Below are positions 4,019 to 55,364 of a stretch of 55,364 bases of DNA, piece by piece. The translations under genes were made by a program, and so were the position numbers. The notes under the pieces are model-generated. The model saw only the letters and a list, made by a program, of their open reading frames with translations. It did not search any database and was not told the origin of the DNA. The stretch is from the NCBI GenBank assembly GCA_007378955.1, contig VMGY01000004.1, forward strand, positions 1 through 55,364, given 5' to 3'. The stretch comes from Parcubacteria group bacterium Athens0714_12. Its GTDB lineage: Bacteria > Patescibacteriota > Patescibacteriia > UBA2591 > VMGY01. Position 1 is the stretch's first letter; every line of letters starts with the position of its first letter.

Positions 4019-4219
4019 GGATTCTAACTTCTAACGCAACAGCGTTGCCATTCGGAAAGCAGGCAAGATTTTCGCTTACGCTCAGCCACCCAGCGAGCGG
4101 CTTCGCTGGCCTCCTTGCTCGCTCTGCCGCCCGGAGCGGCAACCATGCCCGCTCGCTTCGTCGAGCCCGCTCAAATTCTTGCCCGCTTTCCAAATATTGT
4201 TGCGTTAGATTCTAGAATC
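4019..4219 (+). repeat. GC-rich nested-palindrome element, copy 1 (longest; has extra outer arms)
   Basis: Outer arms GATTCTAACTTCTAACGCAACA / TGTTGCGTTAGATTCTAGAATC. Inner arms GCAGGCAAGATTTT / AAATTCTTGCCCGC. Conserved core CCAGCGAGCGGCTTCGCTGG ... ACCATGCCCGCTCGCTTCG is shared with 5586-5740, 30904-31038 and 32166-32304. Confidence 0.85.
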
Positions 4220-4237
4220 AAACTAAATTATAAAAAT

Positions 4238-4615
4238 ATGAAAGTATTAATCACGGGTATCACTGGTTTTGTAGGCAGTCATTTGGCTGATTATATTTTA
4301 AACGAGCATCCGGAAGCGGAGATACATGGCATAAAGAGATGGCGAAGCATTTCAGATAATGTCAAACACTTGGGAAATAAAGTGATTTTTCATGATTGCG
4401 ATATTAAAGACGCCCACAATGTTTATGAAATTATTGAAAGAGTAAAGCCGGAAAAAATTTTTCATTTGGCGGCGCAAAGAATACGGCCTTCAGACGTGCA
4501 AATTTTAATCGGCGATAATACAAAGTTTGTTGAAGCAACAGGTTGGCGGCCGGAAATATCTTTTTTGGGTCAAACCTTAAATGATTTATTGAATTATTGG
4601 CGGGAGAAAGTATAA
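4238..4615 (+). pseudogene. internally deleted NAD-dependent epimerase/dehydratase (GDP-mannose 4,6-dehydratase/reductase-like) remnant, 125 aa
   Basis: The N-terminal Rossmann part (MKVLITGITGFVGSHLADY ... KIFHLAAQ) joins directly to a C-terminal tail (RPSDVQILIGDNTKFVEATGWRPEISFLGQTLNDLLNYWRE). The ~190-aa middle that carries the catalytic Ser/Thr-Tyr-Lys region is absent. Confidence 0.7.
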
Positions 4616-5585: not shown

Positions 5586-5740
5586 AAAATTTTTCAGACT
5601 TGCCGCACGAAAAGACGCGGTCAATCGCCCCTGCGTGGCGACTGCCGCTCGGCGCTCACCCCCGCTCTCTCGCTTTCAGCGAGAACCATGCCCGCTCGGG
5701 TTGCGCGACGCTTTTCTTAGTAACAAGTCAGAAAAATTTT
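5586..5740 (+). repeat. GC-rich nested-palindrome element, copy 2 (most divergent)
   Basis: Terminal arms AAAATTTTTCAGACTTG / CAAGTCAGAAAAATTTT. It has an internal hairpin TCTCGC-TTTCA-GCGAGA followed by the family core ACCATGCCCGCTCG. Confidence 0.75.
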
Positions 5741-7736: not shown

Positions 7737-8501
7737 ATGGCCTCAGAAAAACGATTTGGCTATGAATGGCAAAAATATCATCAAATGGATTCCAATTATG
7801 AAATTCAGTTTAAAAAATGGATTTCGCCTTTCAGCCAAGAAGTTTTTAAAGATAAAAAAGTTTTAGACGCTGGCTGTGGCATGGGCAGGAACAGTTATTG
7901 GCTGTTGAAATATGGCGCTAAAGAAGTTGTTGGTTTTGATTTTGACCAAAGGAGCATCGCCGCGGCGCGAAAAAATTTATCGTCTTTCTCTAACGTGAAA
8001 ATAGAATTTAGAAGCATTTATAATTTACCGCTGGAAAATGAATTTGATATCGCTTTTTGCATTGGCGTGATTCATCATTTGGAAAATCCCCAATTGGCGA
8101 TTAAAAATCTTATTAAAGCAGTCAGGCCGGGCGGTTTAATTTTGATTTGGGTTTACGGTCATGAAAGCAATGAAGGGATAGTTAAGTGGATTAATCCTTT
8201 GAGGATTCATTTAACCAGCAAACTGCCATTGCCAATTCTTCATTTATTAACTTATTGTTTTAGTTTGCCCTTTTGGATTTTTCTCAAATTATTTCCCCAA
8301 AAATCTCCTTATTTGAAGCAAGTTTCTCGATTTAAATTTTTTCACCTTCATTCCATAATTTTTGATCAATTATTGCCAAAAATCGCTAATTATTATAAAA
8401 AAGACGAAGCTTGCCATCTTTTGGCTGAACAAGGATTAAAAAATGTCGGCATTTTTCACTGTAATCAAAATAGTTGGACTGTTTATGGCTATAAAATTTA
8501 A
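7737..8501 (+). CDS. class I SAM-dependent methyltransferase (intact copy)
   Basis: Motif I VLDAGCGMGRNS, GFDFD and CIGVIHHLENP. A paralogue lies at 9996-10715. Confidence 0.8.
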   Translation: MASEKRFGYEWQKYHQMDSNYEIQFKKWISPFSQEVFKDKKVLDAGCGMGRNSYWLLKYGAKEVVGFDFDQRSIAAARKNLSSFSNVKIEFRSIYNLPLENEFDIAFCIGVIHHLENPQLAIKNLIKAVRPGGLILIWVYGHESNEGIVKWINPLRIHLTSKLPLPILHLLTYCFSLPFWIFLKLFPQKSPYLKQVSRFKFFHLHSIIFDQLLPKIANYYKKDEACHLLAEQGLKNVGIFHCNQNSWTVYGYKI

Positions 8502-8552: not shown

Positions 8553-10136
8553 ATGAAATTATTGCCATCTGACATTGTTTTAATTTTACCGCCGCGGCGC
8601 TGGAAAGAACGCCGTTATTCATTAGGATTATTATTTATTTCCGGCTATTTAAGGAGCAATGGCTATGATAATATTATTTTAGAAAGAAAATTATTGGCTG
8701 GCCGCGAGTATGATAATAGCCTTGCCAGAGAATTGCTTTTAAAAAAAATAGAAGAATTAAAGCCAAAAATTATTGCTTTTACCGGCACCATTCTTGAAAC
8801 TAATGAAATAATAGAACTGAATAATAAAATAAAAGAAAAGATAGAAGTTTTTAGCATTGTCGGCGGTCCTCAAGCCAGTGTTTGCCCGGAAGAATTCGTT
8901 AAAAATAATTTTGACGCCGCGGCAATAGGGGAAGGGGAAGAGACGATTTTAGAATTGGTTAGGGCGATAGAAAACAATGATTCCGATCTGGGAAAAATAA
9001 AAGGTATTGCTTATAAAGATAAAGAAGGAAATATCCGCGTTAATCCGCGGCGCGAACTGATGGATATTTCTTTTTTGCCTTTGCCTGCTTATGATAAAAT
9101 TGACATGGCTTACCATACCGCAATTACTAATGAAGTGGTCAGAGGCATTCCGGTCAAGCCGGCAATGGTGATGTCCAGCCGCGGCTGCCCGTTTCTTTGC
9201 AGTTTTTGCTCTACTTATAAAGTTTTTGGCCGAAAAGTAAGATACCGCAACCCGGAAAGCGTGAAAAAAGAAATTGAATTTTTGAAAAATAATTACGGCG
9301 TGGAAAGCATCTGGTTTTCCGATGATACGATGACTATTAACAAAGAACATCTTTTAAAAATTTGCCGTATAATGAAAAACTTGGAATTATTTTGGACAGC
9401 CCAAGCAAGAGTTGATTTAGTTGATGAAGATGTTGTTAAGGAAATGAAAGAAAGCGGCTGCCTGCAATTGGAATTTGGCATAGAATCCGGCTGTCCGCGC
9501 CTTTTGAATGAGATTATTATTAAACAGATTAATTTAGAGCAGGTTAAAAAAGCGGTTGCTTTATGCCGAAAATATAAAATCAGGGTTTTAGCCAATTTTA
9601 TGATGGGCTTTCCCACAGAAACAAAAAAAGAAATGGAGGCGACTTTTAATTTAGCCAAATCACTAAAGGCCAATATTTATTCCTTTTCCATTCTAACTCC
9701 ATTGCCCGGCACTGATATTTTTAACAGATTTTTTAAAGATGAAATCATCATGAATGATTACAAGGATTTAAGTTTTTTTATCGGCAAGAAAAAATTCAAT
9801 AAATCAGAAGTAGATGATTTAAAAAAATTAAATGACATCTGGCGCAAAAAATTATGGCTGCAAGTGCGCATTAGAAATCTTACCCACCCTTTTTTGTTTA
9901 TAAAAATATTTTTTAAGCTTAGCCATAAAAAAGAAAGAATAAAATTTGTATTTAATAAAATCAAAAAATTAATAAAATTTAATAAGCATAAAAGCATGGG
10001 CTCGGAAAAAAGATTTGGTTACGAGTGGGGGAAATACCATCAGATGGATTCCAATTACGAAATCCAGTTTAAAAAATGGATTTCGCCTTTCAGCCAAGAA
10101 ATTTTTAAAGATAAAAAAGTTTTAGACGCTGGCTAA
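8553..10136 (+). CDS. cobalamin-binding-domain (class B) radical SAM enzyme #1; the reading frame runs on into the 5' end of a duplicated methyltransferase
   Basis: N-terminal Rossmann-like domain (IVGGPQAS ... IGEGEETILELV), then SRGCPFLCSFC (CX3CX2C). From codon 482 (ATG 9996) the sequence is MGSEKRFGYEW..., the start of the methyltransferase duplicate, ending at TAA 10134-10136. Confidence 0.8.
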   Translation: MKLLPSDIVLILPPRRWKERRYSLGLLFISGYLRSNGYDNIILERKLLAGREYDNSLARELLLKKIEELKPKIIAFTGTILETNEIIELNNKIKEKIEVFSIVGGPQASVCPEEFVKNNFDAAAIGEGEETILELVRAIENNDSDLGKIKGIAYKDKEGNIRVNPRRELMDISFLPLPAYDKIDMAYHTAITNEVVRGIPVKPAMVMSSRGCPFLCSFCSTYKVFGRKVRYRNPESVKKEIEFLKNNYGVESIWFSDDTMTINKEHLLKICRIMKNLELFWTAQARVDLVDEDVVKEMKESGCLQLEFGIESGCPRLLNEIIIKQINLEQVKKAVALCRKYKIRVLANFMMGFPTETKKEMEATFNLAKSLKANIYSFSILTPLPGTDIFNRFFKDEIIMNDYKDLSFFIGKKKFNKSEVDDLKKLNDIWRKKLWLQVRIRNLTHPFLFIKIFFKLSHKKERIKFVFNKIKKLIKFNKHKSMGSEKRFGYEWGKYHQMDSNYEIQFKKWISPFSQEIFKDKKVLDAG

Positions 10137-10715
10137 GAGTTAGTCGCTTTTGATTTTGACCAACGGAGCGTGGGAGCGGCAAAAAAAAATTTATCGCCTT
10201 ATCCTAACGCGAAAATAGAATTTAAAAGCATTTACGATTTGCCGCGGGAAAATGAATTTGATATCGCTTTTTGCATTGGCGTGATTCATCATTTGGAAAA
10301 TCCGGATTTGGCGATTAAAAATTTGATTCGCGCCGTTAAGCCCGGAGGAATAATTTTAATTTGGGTTTACGGCCATGAAAGCAATGAATGGATAGTTAAG
10401 TGGATTAATCCTTTAAGGATTCATTTAACCAGCAAACTGCCATTGCCAATTCTCCATTTACTCACTTATTGTTTTAGTTCGCTTTTCTGGATTTTTCTCA
10501 AATTATTTCCCCAAAAATCTTCTTATTTGAAGCAAGTTTCTCAATTTAAATTTTTTCATCTTCATTCCATAATTTTTGACCAATTATTGCCAAAAATCGC
10601 TCGTTATTATAAAAAAGATGAAGCTGAACAGCTTTTAATAAAACAAGGATTAAAAAATGTCGGCATTTCCCATCCTAATGAAAATAGCTGGACAGTTTAC
10701 GGTTATAAAAGTTAA
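9996..10715 (+). pseudogene. duplicated SAM methyltransferase disrupted by a 45-nt deletion that creates an in-frame TAA and removes SAM-binding motif I
   Basis: Collinear with 7737-8501 and roughly 85-90% identical at protein level by eye. The 45 nt corresponding to 7876-7920 (encoding CGMGRNSYWLLKYGA) are missing, and the junction reads GGC TAA GAG at 10131-10139. Confidence 0.75.
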
Positions 10716-30879: not shown

Positions 30880-30903
30880 CTTTGTTTGCATTTACTAGTA
30901 TGG

Positions 30904-31038
30904 TCCCGCAAACAGGACTTTCGTTTACGCTCGGTCGCCCAGCGAGCGGCCTCGCTGCGCGGCTCACTCGCTCGTCCGCCTTTGGTGGACACCATGCCCG
31001 CTCGCTTCGCCGACGCCGCGAAAATCCTGTTCTCAGAA
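30904..31038 (+). repeat. GC-rich nested-palindrome element, copy 3
   Basis: About 90% identical to copy 4 (about 14 mismatches over about 135 nt by manual alignment). It ends 10 nt before the GT4 start codon. Confidence 0.85.
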
Positions 31039-31048
31039 ATGAAAAAAT

Positions 31049-32167
31049 ATGAAAACTATTTTATTAATCGCCAAAACACTTTCCTTGGACGATGGCCAGG
31101 GCAGGTACGCCCACGGTCTGATCAGGGAGTTGTCAAAAAAATACAAATTAATTATTCTATCCGGCTGTCTGGAAGGCGCGGAAGTATTGGATAATTCCAA
31201 TCTTGAAATACATAAAATTCCCGACCTTTATGTTTTAAACAGTTTTGCCGGTCCGTTCATATATTTTTTTAAAACTTTAAAATTTTATTTTAAAGCCGAT
31301 TTTGTCCATATTCTGACTGATTTGCCTTATTATATTTTATTTTCTCCGGCAGTATGGTTTAAAATTAAGCCGCTTTTTATCACTTTCCACGGCACTTACG
31401 GCGTTGAACATCTGGAAAAAGGATGGAAAAAAAATATTTTAAAAGCCGCTTGCCGCAAAGCCGAAAAAATAATCTGCGTCAGTAATTTTACCAAAAACGA
31501 GATTTTAAAAAGAGCTGATTTAAAAAATCTGATGGTGATTAATAATGGCGTTGATTATCATAAATGGCAGATTGATTATAAAACAGCCAAGCCAAGCCAA
31601 AAAATAATTTTAGGCGTGGGTGCCTTAAAATCAAGAAAAGGATACCATATTTCTATTCCGGCAGTGGCTAAAGCCAAGGAAAAATATCCGGATTTAAAAT
31701 ATTATATCGTGGGAAATCAGGGAGATAAAAATTATTTCCAAAAATTGAAAAATTTGATTAAGCAAAACCAGCTGGAAAACAATGTTATTTTTCTGGAAAA
31801 AATCTTTGACAAAGACCTGATTTTGCTCTATTATCAAACTGATTTATTCTTATTAACTTCCGTGAATATAGGCAGTAAATTTGAAGGATTTGGCCTGGTT
31901 TATTTGGAGGCGGGAGCTTGCGGCAAACCGGTTATCGGCGCTTATGGTTGCGGAGCCGAGGACGCGATAAGAGATAATTACAACGGATTATTAGTTCCGC
32001 AAAATGACATTGAAAAAACGGCCGAAGCTATTTTGAAGATTTTGGATAATCAAAATTTGGCGGAAAAAATGGGGGAAAATGGCCGGCAGAGAGCCCAAGA
32101 AATGGATTGGTCTAATTTAATCAAGGAATATATCAAAACTTATTCATCAAGCGTATTTCAGAAATAA
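31049..32167 (+). CDS. GT4 family glycosyltransferase, bracketed by repeat copies 3 and 4
   Basis: GVGALKSRKGYH ... FLLTSVNIGSKFEGFGLVYLEAGACGKPVIG (EX7E). Confidence 0.85.
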   Translation: MKTILLIAKTLSLDDGQGRYAHGLIRELSKKYKLIILSGCLEGAEVLDNSNLEIHKIPDLYVLNSFAGPFIYFFKTLKFYFKADFVHILTDLPYYILFSPAVWFKIKPLFITFHGTYGVEHLEKGWKKNILKAACRKAEKIICVSNFTKNEILKRADLKNLMVINNGVDYHKWQIDYKTAKPSQKIILGVGALKSRKGYHISIPAVAKAKEKYPDLKYYIVGNQGDKNYFQKLKNLIKQNQLENNVIFLEKIFDKDLILLYYQTDLFLLTSVNIGSKFEGFGLVYLEAGACGKPVIGAYGCGAEDAIRDNYNGLLVPQNDIEKTAEAILKILDNQNLAEKMGENGRQRAQEMDWSNLIKEYIKTYSSSVFQK

Positions 32168-32304
32168 TTCCGCAAACAGAATTTTCGCTTACGCTCAGCC
32201 GCCCAGCGAGCGGCTTCGCTGCGCGGCTCGCTCGCTCGTCCGCCTTTGGTGGACACCATGCCCACTCACTTCGCCGACGCCGCGAAAATTCTGTTTGCGG
32301 AATT
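32166..32304 (+). repeat. GC-rich nested-palindrome element, copy 4
   Basis: It has a perfect 23-nt closing stem AATTCCGCAAACAGAATTTTCGC / GCGAAAATTCTGTTTGCGGAATT. It starts inside the TAA stop of the GT4 gene. Confidence 0.9.
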
Positions 32305-32344
32305 GTAAACAGCGCTAATTTTTAAATAGTTAATTTTTAAAGAA

Positions 32345-50658: not shown

Positions 50659-53118
50659 ATGCCTCAAGAAAAATTGACTAAAATTTTGGTTAATATAATT
50701 AAGATAGGAGTTTTGATTATCTTATTCCTGCCCCTGGTTATTTCCGCCAATTTCTTTTTTCCTTTCGTGGTTTTAAGAAATTTTTTATTTAGAACCATCG
50801 CCGAGATAATTTTTGTTTTGTATTTAATTTTGGCCGTTTATAATCCCGCTTATCGGCCAAAATTTAAAAATAAGATAGTTTTGGCGGTAATTATTTTTTT
50901 TATCGTTCTATTTCTGGCTTGTTTATTCGGCGCGGATTTTAAAAACAGCATTTGGGGGAATTATGAGAGAATGAACGGCTTGTTTCATTCTTTGCATTTA
51001 GTCCTTTATTTTTTTGTTTTGGTTAATGTTTTTAAAAATAAAAAAGACTGGCAAGATTTTTTTACTTTTTCTATTTTTACCAGCTTGCTGATGAGCTTTA
51101 TCTGCTTGGCGCAGTATTTTCAAGTTCCTTTTTTAATGAAGTCTTCCGGCGGCGACCGCTTGACGGGCACTTTGGGAAACGCCACTTATTTAGCCGCTTA
51201 TTATATTTTTCATTTATTTTTGATTTATTATTTTTTCGCCAAGGAAAAACTTTTTTCTCTCAAGTTTTTCATCTATAGCGTTTTAACCTTTGATTTAATT
51301 TTAATTATTAATGAAATTTATCTCCGCCTCTCCGTTAAATCGCCGGGGATTATCACGCAGGTTTTTCAATATTCCAAACTATTTATCCCATTTTTGATTT
51401 TACAAATTTTTATTTTTTCTTTTTTCTTTTTTAAGTCCAGGCAAAAACTTTTGCTTAAAATATTTTTAGCCTCGCTTTTTATTTTTGAATTTTTTATCTT
51501 TTTTGGCGCCCAGACCAGAGGCGCCGTTCTCGGGCTATTGGCCGGAATTTTATTTTATATTTTTTTCGTTGTTTATTCCGGCCAAAAAAAACAGAAAATT
51601 TTCGCTTCCTCTTTCCTTATTTTGATTATTGTTTTCAGCTTATTTATTTATTCAAATAAAGATTCAAAATGGCTCGGGGAAAAGGCGCCTGTTCTTCTTC
51701 GGCTGACCACTATCTCGCCAAAAAGCATTACCGGCGAATCTCGCTTGCTGACTTGGGAGGCGAGTTGGAAGGGTTGGCTGGAAAGGCCGTTGCTTGGATA
51801 CGGATTGGAGAATTACAATGTCGTTTTTAATAAATATTTTCCCGCGGCGATTTTTAGGGACCAGGGTTCCCAAATTTGGTTTGACAAAGCGCACAATATT
51901 ATTTTTGACATCGGCGCGACTTCCGGCTTTATCGGTCTGTTCAGTTATTTAGCTATTTTTATTTTCGCTTTCTTTTATTTAAAAAAAGTTTACCGAAAAA
52001 ATAAAGATTTTAATGAAAGCGTCTTATTCGGCTCTTTATTGATTGCTTATTTCGGCCAGAATTTTTTTGTTTTTGATACTTTAAACACGGAAATTTTATT
52101 TTATTTAATTTTAGGTTTTATTGTTTTTCAAAGCGAATCCAATAACGCGCCTATTGATATTTCAGAACAAGAAAAGTTGAAAAAAGAAGCGAATTTTGAT
52201 TTTTTAACACCAGCAATTTTATTAATTCTTTTTCTTTTTTCTTTTTATAATTTTAATTATAAGCCGCTCAAAGGCAATTATTATTTGGCGAAAGCGCTTC
52301 TTTTGAAAACAATAAAAGAGCAAAAAGGGGAATCGGCTTATGACGAGGAAGTGATTAATAATTTTAAGAAAGCTCTTACTTATAGCAAAAATACTTTCGG
52401 CAGATTTGAAACAAGACAGCAATTAACTAATTATACAATGGACTTGTCCAGGGATGAGTCAATAGACCAGAACAAATTAAAAGAATTGATTGAATTTGCC
52501 GTTAATGAAATGGAAAAAAGCGTTAAAGAAAGCCCTTTAAATGTCAGAGAGCATCTTTATTTGGCTACTTTGTATGATGCCGCGGCTAAATTTAATTTTG
52601 ATTATTTAAATAAATCAATTAATGTTTTAACCAAAGCGATTCCCTTAAGCCCGACGCGTCCCCAGCTTTATTTTGAAAGAGGCCAGGCGAAGATTTTTCA
52701 GGGCAAATTTGAAGAGGCGATAAGCGATTTTAAAAAAGGCGCGGACTTGAGCCCTACGGTGGTGGAATCCCATTGGAATTTAGCCGCCGCTTATATTTTA
52801 TCAGGGCAAGAAGATAAAGCGGAAGAAGAATTTAAAAAAGCCGAAGAATTAGGTTTTAATTTTCAGACTGTTCAAAATTACCAAAGATTAATCCAAGTTT
52901 ATATAAATAAGGGAGATTACGCGAAGATGGCGGAATTATACAAGAAAATGATTGAATTAGAGCCCAATGTCGCGAGTCATTACGCTAAATTAGCTTGGGT
53001 TTATATGCAAATGGGTGAAAAGGAAAAAGCTAAAGAAGCGACGGAAAAAGCGGTTGAAATAGATCCCAGTTTAAGAGCGCAGGCAGATTTGTTTTTAGAA
53101 GAACTAAAAAAGAAATAA
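50659..53118 (+). CDS. O-antigen ligase/polymerase-like (Wzy_C) membrane protein with C-terminal TPR repeats
   Basis: More than 10 TM helices, a loop reading GAQTRGAVLGLLAG and WKGWLERPLLGYGLENY. The C-terminal ~250 aa hold TPR-like repeats (YFERGQAKIFQGKFEEAISDFKKGADLSP, ...). Confidence 0.7.
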   Translation: MPQEKLTKILVNIIKIGVLIILFLPLVISANFFFPFVVLRNFLFRTIAEIIFVLYLILAVYNPAYRPKFKNKIVLAVIIFFIVLFLACLFGADFKNSIWGNYERMNGLFHSLHLVLYFFVLVNVFKNKKDWQDFFTFSIFTSLLMSFICLAQYFQVPFLMKSSGGDRLTGTLGNATYLAAYYIFHLFLIYYFFAKEKLFSLKFFIYSVLTFDLILIINEIYLRLSVKSPGIITQVFQYSKLFIPFLILQIFIFSFFFFKSRQKLLLKIFLASLFIFEFFIFFGAQTRGAVLGLLAGILFYIFFVVYSGQKKQKIFASSFLILIIVFSLFIYSNKDSKWLGEKAPVLLRLTTISPKSITGESRLLTWEASWKGWLERPLLGYGLENYNVVFNKYFPAAIFRDQGSQIWFDKAHNIIFDIGATSGFIGLFSYLAIFIFAFFYLKKVYRKNKDFNESVLFGSLLIAYFGQNFFVFDTLNTEILFYLILGFIVFQSESNNAPIDISEQEKLKKEANFDFLTPAILLILFLFSFYNFNYKPLKGNYYLAKALLLKTIKEQKGESAYDEEVINNFKKALTYSKNTFGRFETRQQLTNYTMDLSRDESIDQNKLKELIEFAVNEMEKSVKESPLNVREHLYLATLYDAAAKFNFDYLNKSINVLTKAIPLSPTRPQLYFERGQAKIFQGKFEEAISDFKKGADLSPTVVESHWNLAAAYILSGQEDKAEEEFKKAEELGFNFQTVQNYQRLIQVYINKGDYAKMAELYKKMIELEPNVASHYAKLAWVYMQMGEKEKAKEATEKAVEIDPSLRAQADLFLEELKKK

Positions 53119-53244
53119 TTTTCAATTTTCAATGACCAATTTTCAATGAATTATCAATTTTCCAATTTTCAAACAATCAAAAGCAGGAATTAATTGATAA
53201 TTGAATAATTGGAGTTTGATTGAAAATTGAGAATTGAAAATTAA
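53117..53244. terminator. long AT-rich imperfect palindrome between convergent genes (candidate bidirectional terminator)
   Basis: TAATTTTCAATTTTCAAT (53117-53134) pairs with ATTGAGAATTGAAAATTA (53227-53244). Inner arms CCAATTTTCAATGAATTATCAATT / AATTGATAATTGAATAATTGG. Confidence 0.5.
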
Positions 53245-54579
53245 TCATCGTCCTTCTCTCTGTATAATAATTTTTATCGTTCTAAGAGCAATATCCAAAT
53301 CTAAAATAAAAGAGCGGTTTTTTAAATAATAAAGCTCGTATTGAAGTTTTTCCAGCGCGTCTTCAACGCTCGCTCCGTAAGGAAAATTTATTTGCGCCCA
53401 GCCGGTTAATCCCGGTTTGATTAAGTGCCTTATTTGATAGTAAGGTATTTTTTTTTCTAATTCTTGAACGAACTCGGGCCTTTCCGGCCGCGGACCGATA
53501 AAACTCATTTCTCCTTTGAGTATATTCAAAAGTTGGGGCAGTTCGTCTAATCGAGCTTTTCTTAAAAAGCGCCCTGCTTTTGTGATGCGCGGGTCTCCCA
53601 TCTTCGCCCATTGAGGGCCGGATTTTTCCGCGTTAGAAAACATCGAGCGAAATTTTAAAGCAAGAAATAATTTGCCGTTTTTGCCGACTCTGATTTGCTT
53701 AAATAAAATAGGCCCTTCGCTGTCTATTTTAATAAGCAAAGCGATAAAAGGAGTTAAAAATAAAGCGATAATTCCCAATAAAAAAGCCAACAAGATATCT
53801 AATAATTTTTTTAACCCTTGATAAGTGTCTTTTTTGCTCTCCATTAAATTTTCTAAAAACCAAATTTCTTTAATTAAAGAAATAGGTATCTTATTTGTCG
53901 TTTCTTCGTAGAAAGTGGCTAAATCTATAAAATTAATTTTTAAAGGCAGGCATTGATAAAGAGTTTGGACTAAATTTTCATCCTGATGATAAGAAGGATT
54001 GCCGATTACAATAGTATTGATATTATTTTTTTTTAACAATTCTTTGAAGCAGGAAATGTTTTGTAAAATTTCCGGTTTTACGATATCTATAATTGTATAA
54101 CCCAATTGAGGATTATTTTTAATTTTTTCCGCTAATTGCTCAGCTTCTTTATCTTCGCCGATAATTAAAACATTATTCAAAAGAATTCGCGATTTGATAA
54201 AATAATTAAAAAGCTGCCGCCAGAGGGTGAAAAAAACAGCGAATAAAATCAGATTTATAAAAAGATTTGTTTTAGGATTAATGCCGAAGTATGGAATAAG
54301 ATAAAAGAAAGTCGCCGACAAAAGTCCGACAATAAGCAATGTTTTGGAAAGAAGATTGAAAAAAACTAAATTATTGCGGGCTAAATTTAAATCATATAGA
54401 TTGGCAATATGGAAAATAAGCAGCCAAAAAATATAGATAACAGTAAAAGGAAATAAATGCTGCTGCCATTTTTCAGCCGTTGCCGCGTGGTAACGTATAA
54501 GCAGGGTCAGATAGAGAGACAGATATAAAACAGAAATATCGCCTGCCAATAAAATAATTTTTTTAAGTTGTTTAGTCAT
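53245..54579 (-). CDS. polyprenyl-phosphate sugar-1-phosphate transferase (WbaP / bacterial sugar transferase family), the initiating enzyme
   Basis: N-terminal TM helices, a central Rossmann-like domain and C-terminal ...RITKAGRFLRKARLDELPQLLNILKGEMSFIGPRPERPEF. ATG at 54579 was preferred; a TTG at 54621 is the longest-ORF alternative. Confidence 0.85.
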   Translation of the reverse strand: MTKQLKKIILLAGDISVLYLSLYLTLLIRYHAATAEKWQQHLFPFTVIYIFWLLIFHIANLYDLNLARNNLVFFNLLSKTLLIVGLLSATFFYLIPYFGINPKTNLFINLILFAVFFTLWRQLFNYFIKSRILLNNVLIIGEDKEAEQLAEKIKNNPQLGYTIIDIVKPEILQNISCFKELLKKNNINTIVIGNPSYHQDENLVQTLYQCLPLKINFIDLATFYEETTNKIPISLIKEIWFLENLMESKKDTYQGLKKLLDILLAFLLGIIALFLTPFIALLIKIDSEGPILFKQIRVGKNGKLFLALKFRSMFSNAEKSGPQWAKMGDPRITKAGRFLRKARLDELPQLLNILKGEMSFIGPRPERPEFVQELEKKIPYYQIRHLIKPGLTGWAQINFPYGASVEDALEKLQYELYYLKNRSFILDLDIALRTIKIIIQREGR

Positions 54580-54821
54580 ACCCGGTAGTACAACTTTGAG
54601 ATTATTTTTATTAAGTCCCAAAGTTATTTTTAAATATAATATCTTATTGCTCCGATAGCCAAACTGTCAAAGTTGTCCTACCGGGCATAAGGTTAAGTAT
54701 AGTAAAAAGAGAGAAAAATACAAGTAAAAATGATAAAATTTTGGTTTAAAAAAATATTAAACGACCAAATGCTAAAAAATAAAGAATCAAGCATTTTAAT
54801 GTTTAGGATTTTTTTAAGTGT

Positions 54822-54850: not shown

Positions 54851-54907
54851 ATCTTATTATGATTAAAAAGTTTATATTCTTAATGGTTTTTTCGCTTATT
54901 TTTCTTA

Positions 54908-55364
54908 ATGGTTTTTTCGCTTATTTTATTCAATTTTAGCCCTATTTTAGCCTATTTGCCCAATGACCCTAAGTTTAGCGAACAAAAGGCATTAAATGAC
55001 ATAAAAATCACCCAGGCTTGGGATATGACCCGCGGCAGCAAAGATGTGGTAATTGCCGTCCTTGATTCAGGGGTTGATATTGCTCATCTTGATTTGAAAA
55101 ATAATATCTGGATTAATAAAGGTGAAATTCCAAATGATGGCATTGATAATGACAAGAATGGCTATGTTGACGATGTAAATGGCTGGGATTTTGTTGATGA
55201 GAATAACGACCCCAACCCTAAATTTTCTTTGAATTTTACAGAAGTCGGCTTAAATCACGGAACAATTATTAGCGGCCTAATCGCTGCCCAGGGAGATAAT
55301 GGCGAGGGGATGACAGGGGTTTGCCCTAATTGTAAAATTATGCCTTTAAGAGTTTTGGATAATC
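54908..55364 (+). CDS. subtilisin-like serine protease (S8 family), 3'-truncated by the window edge; the 5' end is disturbed by a 25-nt tandem duplication
   Basis: My own translation (not in the ORF track): MVFSLILFNFSPILAYLPNDPKFSEQKALNDIKITQAWDMTRGSKDVVIAVLDSGVD ... GLNHGTIISG ... CPNCKIMPLRVLD. The catalytic Asp and His motifs are present. Confidence 0.75.
   Translation, partial: MVFSLILFNFSPILAYLPNDPKFSEQKALNDIKITQAWDMTRGSKDVVIAVLDSGVDIAHLDLKNNIWINKGEIPNDGIDNDKNGYVDDVNGWDFVDENNDPNPKFSLNFTEVGLNHGTIISGLIAAQGDNGEGMTGVCPNCKIMPLRVLDN

Follow-up and report, generated by a model that had tools for sequence, protein, structure and literature searches.

What are the four GC-rich islands that punctuate a 53-kb glycosylation/radical-SAM operon of Parcubacteria group bacterium Athens0714_12? 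A preliminary description of the window (the whole stretch of DNA analysed here, 55,364 nt long) had grouped them into one family of nested palindromes and had offered a structured RNA, a REP/BIME-like element or a MITE as candidate identities. Among these options, the MITE/REP-like mobile reading proved the best supported, by target duplications and inverted ends in a sister branch, by sites that are empty in relatives and by identical cores at unrelated loci, and the four islands are in our judgement probably copies of a non-autonomous element of this kind. The genomes of Patescibacteria (CPR), tiny and streamlined, are generally held to be poor in mobile elements, and the occurrence of a structured repeat several times in one CPR operon, as well as inside essential operons, contrasts with that view.

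Four GC-rich hairpin elements in one operon

All four islands are real and lie on the + strand where they had been described (Table 1). Their padded intervals have GC contents of 55%, 52%, 61% and 57% (copies 1 to 4) compared to 34.6% for the whole window. Only two 150-nt bins in the 55 kb reach a GC fraction of at least 0.60 (0.607 and 0.600), and these cover copies 1 and 3, whereas copy 2 and copy 4 fall in bins with values of 0.51 and 0.47. Folding showed that a long terminal stem closes each of the four copies, all of which occupy intergenic spacers, as had been proposed, and a covariance-model search of the window returned these four copies and no others.

Copy 1 consists of a copy-4-type inner element plus additional outer arms of ~40 nt, a feature of the preliminary description that was borne out by the fold of positions 4020-4219, and its C-rich strand is the + strand of the window. 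Copies 3 and 4 are 89% identical over 140 nt (family D2), with the right outer arm of copy 3 being shorter than that of copy 4. Alignment to the other copies placed copy 2 in a subfamily different from that of copies 1, 3 and 4; of the four, it is the most canonical representative of the family. Outer arms are shared within the window by copies 3 and 4 only; those of copies 1 and 2, and of most CPR copies, are copy-specific. The outer stem of copy 4 is a perfect stem of 25 bp. On the reverse strand, copy 1 folds to -102.8 and copy 4 to -85.3 (z -10.19).

Two sequence motifs had been described as a core common to all copies. The second, ACCATGCCCGCTCG, is indeed found in each, with three exact occurrences and one, in copy 4, that carries two mismatches (~1.3 occurrences expected even when three mismatches are allowed), but the first, CCAGCGAGCGGCTTCGCTG, occurs only in copies 1, 3 and 4 (expected 0.01) and is replaced by CCCCTGCGTGG in copy 2. 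The elements had been said to begin 0-25 nt after a stop codon; the upstream stop codon lies 5, 13 and 31 nt away for copies 1 to 3, and copy 4 overlaps the stop codon of its upstream GT4 gene (31049-32167). The open reading frames that cross the elements are by-products of the repeat, as had been suspected, with the recurrent TMPAR(F/V) peptide being encoded by ACC ATG CCC GCT CG. The real gene remnant in ORF 4115-4615 starts at ATG 4238, and ORF 30886-31194 extends, in a different frame, into the first part of the GT4 gene.

Table 1. Positions of the four elements, their cores and motifs, and the spurious reading frames that cross them.
Feature	Positions	Strand	Evidence
Copy 1, full hairpin element	4020-4219	+	MFE -90 kcal/mol, z -7.66
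Copy 1, conserved core (three-way junction)	4075-4167	+	covariance-model match, 65.3 bits, E 6e-10
Copy 1, core motifs	P2 loop motif 4090-4108; ACCATGCCCGCTCG 4142-4155	+	motif scans
Spurious upstream part of ORF 4115-4615, running through copy 1 (…ATMPARF…)	4115-4237	+	ORF list, translation
Copy 2, full hairpin element	5586-5740	+	MFE -57.8, z -3.29
Copy 2, conserved core	5615-5710	+	covariance-model match, 79.6 bits, E 1e-12
Copy 2, core motifs	P2 loop CCTGCGT 5630-5636; ACCATGCCCGCTCG 5685-5698	+	motif scan
Spurious 102-aa ORF across copy 3 (…DTMPARF…)	30886-31194	+	ORF list, translation
Copy 3, hairpin element	30911-31031	+	MFE -55.9, z -2.48
Copy 3, conserved core	30924-31014	+	covariance-model match, 63.3 bits
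Copy 3, core motifs	30939-30957; 30991-31004	+	motif scans
Copy 4, hairpin element	32164-32306	+	MFE -73, z -8.14
Copy 4, conserved core	32188-32278	+	covariance-model match, 59.5 bits
Copy 4, core motifs	32203-32221; 32255-32268 (2 mismatches)	+	motif scans
Copy 4, P4 hairpin TCCGCC-TTT-GGTGGA	32239-32253	+	

A widespread family with a covarying core

A wider search for copies, which the preliminary description had called for, was performed with pattern scans and a covariance model and uncovered a large family of more than 160 relatives in MAGs of Patescibacteria, Omnitrophota, Planctomycetia and Margulisiibacteriota and in many metagenomes, with several copies per MAG or contig. Species-representative genomes contributed 37 matches, which divide by record title into 16 Patescibacteria/CPR, 8 Omnitrophota, 3 Planctomycetia, 1 Margulisiibacteriota, 1 Gammaproteobacteria-labelled and 8 unclassified entries. 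At least 120 metagenome contigs carry the family pattern, and the covariance model gave 115 + 57 matches. Host genomes with the conserved core range from 35% to 59% GC and span at least four phyla. Inverted doublets of the element were seen at two loci (L011 and L061). No family match was found in viral contigs, plasmids or phages. Rfam 15, a search also called for earlier, gave no match to any RNA family, EAR, HDV-like, twister-sister, T-box and tmRNA included, at the gathering threshold, either for the window or for seven loci, in agreement with the initial failure to recognise a known family; at E values up to 10 (window, canonical members and MITE branch), only far sub-threshold chance matches appeared. 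Full-text literature searches on MITEs, REPs and structured RNAs of CPR, Omnitrophota and Planctomycetes found no description of the element.

Each unit combines a core of ~95-115 nt with a long outer stem. The core forms a single-stranded three-way junction comprising a P2 hairpin and a rod, P3-P4. The P2 loop reads CCAGCGN, with CCAGCG being invariant, and the rod carries an invariant, unpaired 7-nt bulge, ACCATGC. Internal loops of the form C-UC-G/C-UC-G recur, which on the complementary strand become tandem G.A mismatches of the C-GA-G type, and TC/TC tandem mismatches are 8 times as frequent as the next commonest tandem type. Conservation is concentrated in loops and bulges while the stems covary freely, such that the apex of the element is conserved and the base variable. 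Because the search patterns behind the collection fix CGCTC, ACCATGCCC and CTC, conservation at these positions is partly an ascertainment effect; matches found by the model only have CGCTC…CCGCTC swapped for fully complementary arms and keep ACCATGC and CCAGCG.

The pairing itself is strongly supported by covariation, which had been proposed as a check on the structure. Across 107 sequences, 83.7% of cells are paired compared to 61.2% in shuffles, and double-sided changes occupy 618 cells where 204 are expected. The covariation score is 0.52 versus 0.16 in shuffles, with 0 of 500 shuffles scoring as high and slid controls reaching 0.07-0.14. The strand on which the elements had been described turned out not to be the best folder: in 146 of 151 copies, the better fold is that of the G-rich complementary strand (mean -68.2 versus -56.9 kcal/mol), which also has the lower z-score after shuffling in 32 of 45. 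On the C-rich strand, A.C/C.A mismatches outnumber G.T/T.G mismatches by 196 to 100, indicating that more wobble pairs form on the G-rich strand.

A conserved fold of this kind could belong to a free-standing functional RNA (a small ncRNA, a ribozyme, or a ligand- or protein-binding RNA) that is made from the G-rich strand and multiplied as the cargo of mobile hairpins. Such an RNA would agree with the covarying three-way junction, the unpaired motifs that are invariant across phyla, the better fold and more numerous wobble pairs of the G-rich strand, and the tandem G.A pairs in a C-GA-G context. It would also fit the presence of a second, different GC-rich cargo, at L062:2832-3010, in the IS66-like shell that surrounds one branch of the family. 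However, no conserved promoter was found, with the promoter-like matches by copies 2 and 4 being at background level for AT-rich DNA, and the many copies per genome, lying in either orientation in operons, are unlike known trans-acting RNAs. In addition, the P4 hairpins are mostly capped by triloops (113 of 153), 68 of which are GNA loops closed by C-G; such triloops are typical of stable single-stranded DNA and seldom cap functional RNAs. With no relative in Rfam either, we consider a functional RNA of this type unlikely, although its chance is not negligible.

Resemblances to individual known motifs were also considered. A K-turn beside the 3-nt bulge was rejected by eye on both strands, with the G.A pairs lying 4 bp from the bulge. 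GGCAUGGU and CUCGCUGG resemble HDV sequence but occupy other structural positions, and an HDV-like ribozyme, which also has no Rfam match here, was discarded. A pseudoknot between the P2 loop (AGCGA) and CTCGCT is unsupported, its fifth pair showing no covariation. What we take to be resemblances to a T-box-like UGGN bulge and to an ssoA CS-6 (TAGCGT)-like loop were not adopted.

Genomic context and traces of insertion

In the wider family, the rule that an element lies immediately 3' of a gene and in the same orientation breaks down. For 164 copies, flanking genes are on the same strand in 116 cases and on the opposite strand in 82, and there are 14 divergent and 5 convergent contexts. Orientation is uniform within local clusters (4/4 in the window, 3/3 at L024, and 2/2 at each of L100, L013 and L075), and shows a bias with respect to GC skew (65 versus 33, p 0.0016). 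Copies sit in housekeeping operons, including before rpsM, in the atpD/atpC spacer and after alaS; the essential operons concerned include the ribosomal protein/rpoA cluster, ATP synthase and alaS.

The arrangement in the window, where all four copies point in the direction of the operon and start 0-31 nt past stop codons, would be expected of a cis-acting mRNA element that tunes the expression of flanking genes, for example by stabilising 3' ends, by serving as an RNase III processing site, by termination or attenuation, or as a processive-antitermination RNA. The uniform orientation of clusters and the modest excess of co-oriented genes are also consistent with such a role, but gene-relative orientation is near random over the family as a whole, and the clusters at L100 and L075 are antisense to genes. 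Moreover, neighbours are unrelated between loci, the strand in sense is the weaker folder, and the same junctions are element-free in close relatives. No window copy forms a U-tract terminator: intrinsic-terminator calls (GC stem plus U tract) span none of the elements and are limited to small sub-hairpins at background frequency. A cis-acting function as the reason for the family therefore has, in our estimate, only a slim chance of being correct.

Mobility is indicated by several lines of evidence. In many pairs of copies the cores are at least 94% identical and the flanks unrelated, and two loci (L004 and L011) have an identical ~115-nt core within different outer stems. One branch, from sediment and lake, lies within 200-227 bp MITEs with IS66-like inverted ends (GTAAGCATCCnnATTTCCGTGAT, ~32 loci). 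The ends of this branch read G(T/G)AAGCATCC…, with paired ends GTAAGCATCC…ATTTCCGTGAT, and over its first 10 nt, GTAAGCATCC, the inverted end agrees with that of the IS66-family element ISPsko1, GTAAGCGTCC, at 9 of 10 positions (PMC12888890). Direct repeats of 9 bp with at least 7 of 9 positions matching flank 8 of 16 elements in this branch, and are perfect in 5, compared to 0 of 16 controls. For copies without inverted ends, an automated search for target duplications was negative, with 8 of 122 scoring versus 4 in controls. Neither the window copies nor any of the inspected CPR, Omnitrophota and Planctomycetia copies have IS66-like ends, and no IS66 transposase was found in the loci. A solitary inverted-end match at L062 was dismissed as a chance match within a coding region. 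The window copies have no target duplication (5-7 of 9 positions matching, no different from controls) and their stems are common within a subfamily (copies 3 and 4), so that their mode of arrival is not directly visible.

Comparisons with relatives provided empty sites. Syntenic relatives of the window GT4 gene (61-68% amino-acid identity) have element-free copy-3 and copy-4 junctions, with the genes overlapping or tightly adjacent, and relatives at 83-92% AlaRS identity lack elements that are present at L004 and L024. For these empty sites, loss instead of gain is formally conceivable. Since GT4 exists without elements in relatives, we abandoned a reading of the copy 1/2 and copy 3/4 pairs as gene cassettes. 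The single clean case of an inverted-duplication signature is L004, in which removal of a 126-nt insert restores the empty site L166 across the junction. The insert comprises a 110-nt core unit and a 16-nt exact reverse complement of the following 16 nt, and the empty site has one arm only and no pre-existing palindrome. This composition suggests that locus-specific outer stems are made at insertion. The junction between AlaRS and a 364-aa gene product is ambiguous, falling in a TC-rich run, and the comparison of filled and empty atpD/atpC sites is weak (15/23 versus 11/23).

No protein gene appears to travel with the element, as all-against-all clustering of 941 ORFs from ~160 loci yielded no family in more than 5 loci. 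Likewise, no transposase, integrase or reverse transcriptase is among the 25 commonest Pfam families of the window, and ~1.1 Mb of loci contained no autonomous IS with the same ends.

These data also bear on whether the elements are remnants of a REP/RAYT or IS200/IS605-type (PATE) single-strand DNA transposon, moved by cut and paste by an HUH (Y1) transposase that recognises the folded strand together with a flanking tetranucleotide, CTCG / CGAG, and preferentially targets pre-existing hairpin loops or centres of palindromes. Both arms are enriched in CTCG, read on one and the same strand, and the termini GCTCGG…CCTCGC occur in 11 of 118 cases versus 2 in controls, but only a part of the family, to which the window copies do not belong, has this signature. 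In L004/L011 and L105/L135 the core unit begins and ends at YTCR motifs, the conserved motifs are of a kind that would suit stable single-stranded DNA, and the lack of target duplication in copies with non-inverted ends as well as the GC-skew bias would be in keeping with this mode of transposition. However, the clean empty site offers one arm and no palindrome as a target, the junctions in relatives of the window are overlapping genes without a hairpin, and no Y1 transposase was seen in any locus examined. Furthermore, it is the apex that is conserved and not the stem, which is the conserved part in REPs. We accordingly regard this origin as improbable.

A mobile-element interpretation and known systems

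Returning to the MITE/REP-like mobile element that we favour, the L004 insertion allows a mechanism to be sketched. A core unit of ~110 nt would be copied into an intergenic site, and its new 3' end would snap back on its own strand, by template switch or fold-back synthesis. Snapping back would append the flank in inverted form and thereby create a locus-specific, initially perfect outer stem. Complete hairpins could later be duplicated as units, as may have happened for copies 3 and 4 in the window. We put this copying-plus-snap-back origin of new copies forward as a tentative proposal. Somewhat more doubtful is its extension, that a structured ~110-nt core, copied into a nick or a nascent 3' end through target-primed or template-switch synthesis before it snaps back, constitutes a new kind of mobile element with an inverted target duplication, in which the core (CCAGCG loop and ACCATGC bulge) might act as a recognition, priming or catalytic module, in the form of either RNA or single-stranded DNA.

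Most likely the core is conserved for the propagation of the element itself, as a module that a trans-acting enzyme recognises or uses as a template. Within the window, the copies would be passengers of the operon, and very stable hairpins in the polycistronic transcript are their likely local effect. Covariation of the core across such a range of GC contents and phyla implies that something conserved must read it, and the exact conservation of unpaired motifs between phyla exceeds the needs of a plain MITE and points to a further function. The partner of the core, once found, would lead to a new mobilisation system or to a new function of RNA or single-stranded DNA. If general, the inverted flank duplication would be an insertion signature not described for bacterial repeats and would explain the origin of long, perfect, unique intergenic hairpins. 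The family matches no described one among those searched, and its insertion mechanism is possibly new. On the practical side, the elements create spurious TMPARF ORFs and can break assemblies and bins, while also providing a marker for strain-level population genetics of uncultivated lineages, and the covariance model could seed an Rfam or Dfam entry.

Several known systems share part of these properties. Yeast mitochondrial GC clusters are likewise short, mobile, GC-rich palindromic islands in the intergenic regions of a very AT-rich genome, but they belong to another domain of life, are much shorter and lack a branched conserved core. Integron attC sites are structured imperfect palindromes that lie 3' of genes and act as a folded single strand, and, like the window copies, they have one orientation per array and bracket single genes (copies 1/2 and 3/4). 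In attC, however, conservation lies at the stem base (R''/R' boxes) and variation at the apex, the reverse of what is seen here. The boxes R''(RYYYAAC)…R'(GTTRRRY) are not present, with a GTTAGAT-like end noted by eye in copy 1 only, and, in contrast to cassettes, the neighbouring GT4 gene occurs without elements in relatives and no integrase is among the top 25 Pfam families of the window.

Templated quasi-palindrome mutation, fold-back synthesis and the hairpin steps of target-primed reverse transcription resemble the L004 insertion in that an inverted adjacent copy perfects a palindrome. All of these are known as mutational or side reactions and are not known to be the standard way in which a bacterial repeat family inserts, whereas we propose that such a step may be a regular part of insertion. 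REP, BIME and REPIN elements, mobilised by RAYT, are extragenic palindromes that are frequent just past stop codons, occur as singlets and inverted doublets, are non-autonomous and, like this family, are thought to act as folded single strands. REPs are palindromes of 20-40 nt with a conserved stem and a 5' GTAG-like tetranucleotide, whereas here conservation rests with loops and bulges while the stems vary, and the branched unit is 3-6 times longer; no RAYT gene was seen in the loci examined. The sediment and lake branch resembles the IS66 family in the ISPsko1-like end (9/10) and in its short direct repeats, although IS66 target duplications are 8 bp compared to 9 bp in this branch.

Finally, hairpin MITEs such as Correia/NEMIS of Neisseria, ERIC/IRU, BOX, RUP and bcr1 of the Bacillus cereus group are, like this family, 120-260 bp long, non-coding, multi-copy and intergenic, form long imperfect palindromes and are often co-transcribed with their neighbours. 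The window hairpins (121-200 nt, non-coding and dispersed, with more than 160 copies elsewhere) are in keeping with MITEs in size and copy number, and one branch of the family also has the inverted ends and 9-bp target duplications of these elements, unlike the window and CPR-type copies. What sets the family apart from hairpin MITEs is its apical three-way-junction core, which covaries across phyla while the ends and stems are mostly copy-specific.

Four copies of a branched element

The four GC-rich islands lay on the + strand at the positions of the preliminary description, with a GC content of 52-61% in the padded intervals vs 34.6% across the window; in a 150-nt scan of the entire 55 kb, 0.60 GC was reached only by bins on copies 1 and 3. 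One of the two core motifs described as shared, ACCATGCCCGCTCG, was exact in copies 1-3 and matched copy 4 with two mismatches (chance would give about 1.3 matches with three mismatches tolerated), while the other, CCAGCGAGCGGCTTCGCTG, was present in copies 1, 3 and 4 and missing from copy 2. Every copy was closed by the long stem originally seen, with shuffle-based folding z-scores of -2.5 to -8.1. Copies 3 and 4 were 89% identical, copy 1, which does carry extra outer arms, was a remoter relative, and copy 2 belonged to a different subfamily from the other three. A family covariance model built from 36 sequences matched the window exactly four times. The 'TMPARF' ORFs were indeed by-products, as the peptide is translated from ACC ATG CCC GCT CG.

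Coordinates and anatomy of the elements and neighbouring features (L numbers, fetched genome or metagenome loci; other positions, window)
Feature	Position	Strand	Description
Copy 1	4020-4219	+	stem-closed element, from fold
Copy 2	5586-5740	+	stem-closed element, from fold
Copy 3	30911-31031	+	stem-closed element, from fold
Copy 4	32164-32306	+	stem-closed element, from fold
P1			long outer stem
P2			hairpin, 7-nt loop CCAGCGN
Rod			P3a, 3-nt bulge, P3b (often GGCC/GGCC), UC/UC mismatch, GC/GC, P4 hairpin
Bulge			ACCATGC(CC), unpaired, 3' side of P4
125-aa ORF	4238-4615		N-terminal GxxGxxG Rossmann part (NAD-epimerase/GDP-mannose-dehydratase-like), short C-terminal tail; between copy 1 and GT2 gene
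Direct duplication	7737-8220, 9996-10434		~440 nt, 86-90% identity; spans start of ORF 7737-8501 and surroundings of ORF 10170-10715
AT-rich inverted repeat	53124-53242		54-nt arms, 76% complementary, 11-nt spacer, AATTTTCAAT-like units; between convergent genes 50659-53118 (+) and 53245-54621 (-)
Tandem duplication	54877-54926		25-nt unit TTCTTAATGGTTTTTTCGCTTATTT, perfect
Tail-to-tail doublet	L011:1206-1299, 1376-1466	+, -	
Tail-to-tail doublet	L061:117-206, 266-359	+, -	
Second MITE	L062:2832-3010, L100:1560-1745		IS66-like ends
FMN riboswitch	L067:1260-1410		108 bits; ~150 nt from MITE-type copy
GC-rich structured stretch	L164:10640-10850		spacer equivalent to L011 (+) copy; P4-like hairpin CCCGCC-GTTC-GGCGGG, then GGACTGGTTCGGCG; not recognised by model

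All copies share a three-way junction; its description follows the C-rich strand, the + strand of the window. Across 107 model-aligned sequences, standard pairs filled 83.7% of cells vs 61.2% after shuffling, 618 cells were changed on both sides vs 204 expected, and the covariation score was 0.52 vs 0.16, with 0/500 shuffles as high, in an alignment that is model-fitted and has some columns fixed by the search pattern. Sliding the partners by 1-3 columns gave scores of 0.07-0.14, and covariation was also tested on a MAFFT alignment. The informative pairs were P2, P3b and the outer half of P4, each altered on both sides repeatedly. In matches found only by the model, CGCTC…CCGCTC was swapped for perfectly complementary arms such as GGCAA/TTGCC, indicating that ACCATGC and CCAGCG are the truly invariant unpaired motifs. 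In P1, tandem TC/TC mismatches occurred 56 times, eightfold more than any other tandem mismatch (at most 7), and were concentrated at about 0-10 and 14-26 nt from the junction.

The copies lie within a 53-kb co-directional cluster that takes up nearly the whole window (1-53118) and encodes eight radical-SAM proteins (seven with B12-binding domains), six methyltransferases, several GT1/GT4 and GT2 glycosyltransferases, AsnB and DegT; a CotH/VTC/DUF4956 insertion is missing from syntenic relatives (L161-L163). The 125-aa ORF looks like a gene remnant with an internal deletion, and the AT-rich inverted repeat, itself a long palindrome, lacks the GC-rich core.

Spread of the family and evidence for mobility

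A pattern drawn from the most conserved stretch yielded 37 sites in species-representative genomes, two to four of them in several MAGs. By record title, with taxon labels as given in public records, these comprised 16 Patescibacteria/CPR, 8 Omnitrophota, 3 Planctomycetia, 1 Margulisiibacteriota, 1 labelled Gammaproteobacteria and 8 unclassified MAGs. A looser pattern matched at least 120 metagenome contigs and no viral contigs, and no family match was found in plasmid and phage collections. The collection patterns fix part of the core. The covariance model, whose E-values are rough owing to shortened calibration, gave 115 + 57 matches in the fetched loci, some outside both patterns.

Dozens of pairs had cores 94-100% identical in unrelated far flanks. 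In one branch, from sediment and lake metagenomes, the core is central in 200-227 bp elements with conserved ends G(T/G)AAGCATCCnnATTTCCGTGAT, and this branch fits a MITE in its size, ends and target duplications. Among the 16 such elements with both ends located, flanking direct repeats matched at 7/9 or more positions in 8 and perfectly in 5, vs 0/16 in controls. The first ten bases of the end match the IS66-family end, GTAAGCGTCC, at 9/10 positions (PMC12888890). A second MITE with the same IS66-like ends has a 9-bp target duplication, GCATTTTCT, and different GC-rich cargo containing CCACCATGGGCTTCGGATGG that had no Rfam match. The FMN riboswitch beside one MITE-type copy confirms a bacterial host for the branch.

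Comparison of related loci revealed sites with and without elements. The nearest relatives found for the window GT4 (61-68% amino acid identity) keep the order YfhO - radical SAM - GT4 - flippase and have no element there (all model scores below 12 bits), the junction genes overlapping or abutting; copies 3 and 4 thus sit at junctions that are empty elsewhere. Likewise, L164-L167 (83-92% AlaRS identity) lack the copies found up- and downstream of alaS in L004 and L024. In an orthologous spacer of L011 and L024 the flanks were 97% identical and the elements wholly different, outer stems included, while a neighbouring inverted copy was common to L164 (~85% identity), indicating fast, site-specific turnover. 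This shared copy is the older, (-) member of the L011 doublet; this doublet and that in L061 are reminiscent of REP doublets (REPINs). The GC-rich stretch in L164 may, judging from its sequence, be a divergent relative.

Outer stems and the favoured folding strand

In L004/L011 and L105/L135, the members of each pair have one core unit in common, bounded by YTCR motifs and enclosed in different stems, all of which pair from end to end; the L004 stem is 14 bp and perfect, and that of L011 is broken by a small loop. The clearest filled/empty pair lies upstream of alaS: the empty site in L166 reads …CATTATAACACAG|AAAAAAACCGTAATCCTCC… and the filled site in L004 …CATTATAGCACAA|GGAGATTCTGGTTTTT-TTCTCAAAC…core…GTTTGATTC|AAAAACCAGAATCTCC…. 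With 126 nt removed, L004 aligned with L166 across the junction (41 identical of 49 columns), and the insert opens with 16 nt that are exactly reverse-complementary to the 16 nt directly after the insert, which indicates that at this site one stem arm is old flank and the other a new inverted copy. Two further comparisons were less clear: the junction downstream of alaS was compatible with this reading but ambiguous within a TC-rich run, and an atpD|atpC comparison was no more than suggestive (15/23 vs 11/23). We infer that a core unit of about 110 nt would be copied into a site and that synthesis would then fold back along the same strand, creating the inverted flank copy. Such a route would account for stems that are perfect and specific to each copy, for identical cores sitting in different stems and for the finding of no direct flank duplications outside the IS66-like branch. 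Complete hairpins have evidently also been duplicated as units, as in window copies 3/4, L015/L021 and the MITE branch.

Single-strand mobilisation of the IS200/IS605 type is possible for part of the family, given that CTCG is enriched on both P1 arms of the same strand, but the clean empty site is free of palindromes, which argues against it as the general mechanism. Under copy-in with fold-back, were the primed end the nascent lagging strand, the moderate orientation bias relative to local GC skew (65 vs 33, p 0.0016) would also be explained.

The G-rich complementary strand, antisense to the operon in the window, was predicted to be the stabler in 146/151 copies (mean -68.2 vs -56.9 kcal/mol; -102.8, -67.3, -66.0 and -84.5 kcal/mol for copies 1-4) and had the lower z-score in 32/45 copies in a composition control. 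Read on this strand, the TC/TC loops are tandem G.A mismatches of the form C-GA-G, and the 196 A.C/C.A vs 100 G.T/T.G mismatches of the C-rich strand amount to an excess of wobble pairs. Triloops cap P4 in 113 of 153 distinct copies, 68 of them GNA and 91 RNA (R, purine), nearly all C-G closed. C(GNA)G triloops, and tandem sheared G.A set between a pyrimidine and a purine, are hallmarks of exceptionally stable single-stranded DNA; RNA tolerates them too. Together, these features and energies favour the G-rich strand as the one that folds, as RNA or DNA alike.

Genomic context and comparison with known systems

Same-orientation placement 3' of genes did not extend to the family: with genes taken as simple ORF calls, flanking genes were on the same strand in 116 cases and opposite in 82, a weak bias. 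Copies lay between same-strand tandem genes (24), opposite-strand tandem genes (17), divergent genes (14) and convergent genes (5). Some sit inside housekeeping operons: ahead of rpsM-rpsK-rpsD-rpoA, between atpD and atpC, after alaS and after a penicillin-binding protein gene. Orientation was uniform inside local clusters (window 4/4, L024 3/3, L100, L013 and L075 2/2 each). In three Moranbacteria-like contigs (L168-L170) the gap between atpG and atpD is unusually long (about 560-690 nt) and contains a small antisense ORF call; the element model matched none of these spacers. The weak orientation bias, the varied neighbours (no recurring protein family among neighbouring ORFs of the fetched loci), and, at the window copies, promoter-like matches at background level and no canonical terminator argue against a dedicated cis-regulatory role. 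We regard the four window copies as passengers in the operon.

Membership criteria led us to reject attC sites and REPs, and intrinsic terminators were likewise rejected. Rfam 15 held no counterpart on either strand, and full-text literature on MITEs, REPs and structured RNAs in CPR, Omnitrophota and Planctomycetes yielded no description of the family, in line with the first impression that it matched nothing recognised. We conclude that the family is a genuine mobile repeat, structured and widespread; of the structured RNA, REP or MITE initially proposed, a MITE/REP-type non-autonomous repeat describes how it works, REP itself does not. Unlike described families, it spans several phyla, may use inverted rather than direct flank duplication, and reverses the pattern of conservation, the branched apex being conserved and the stems free.
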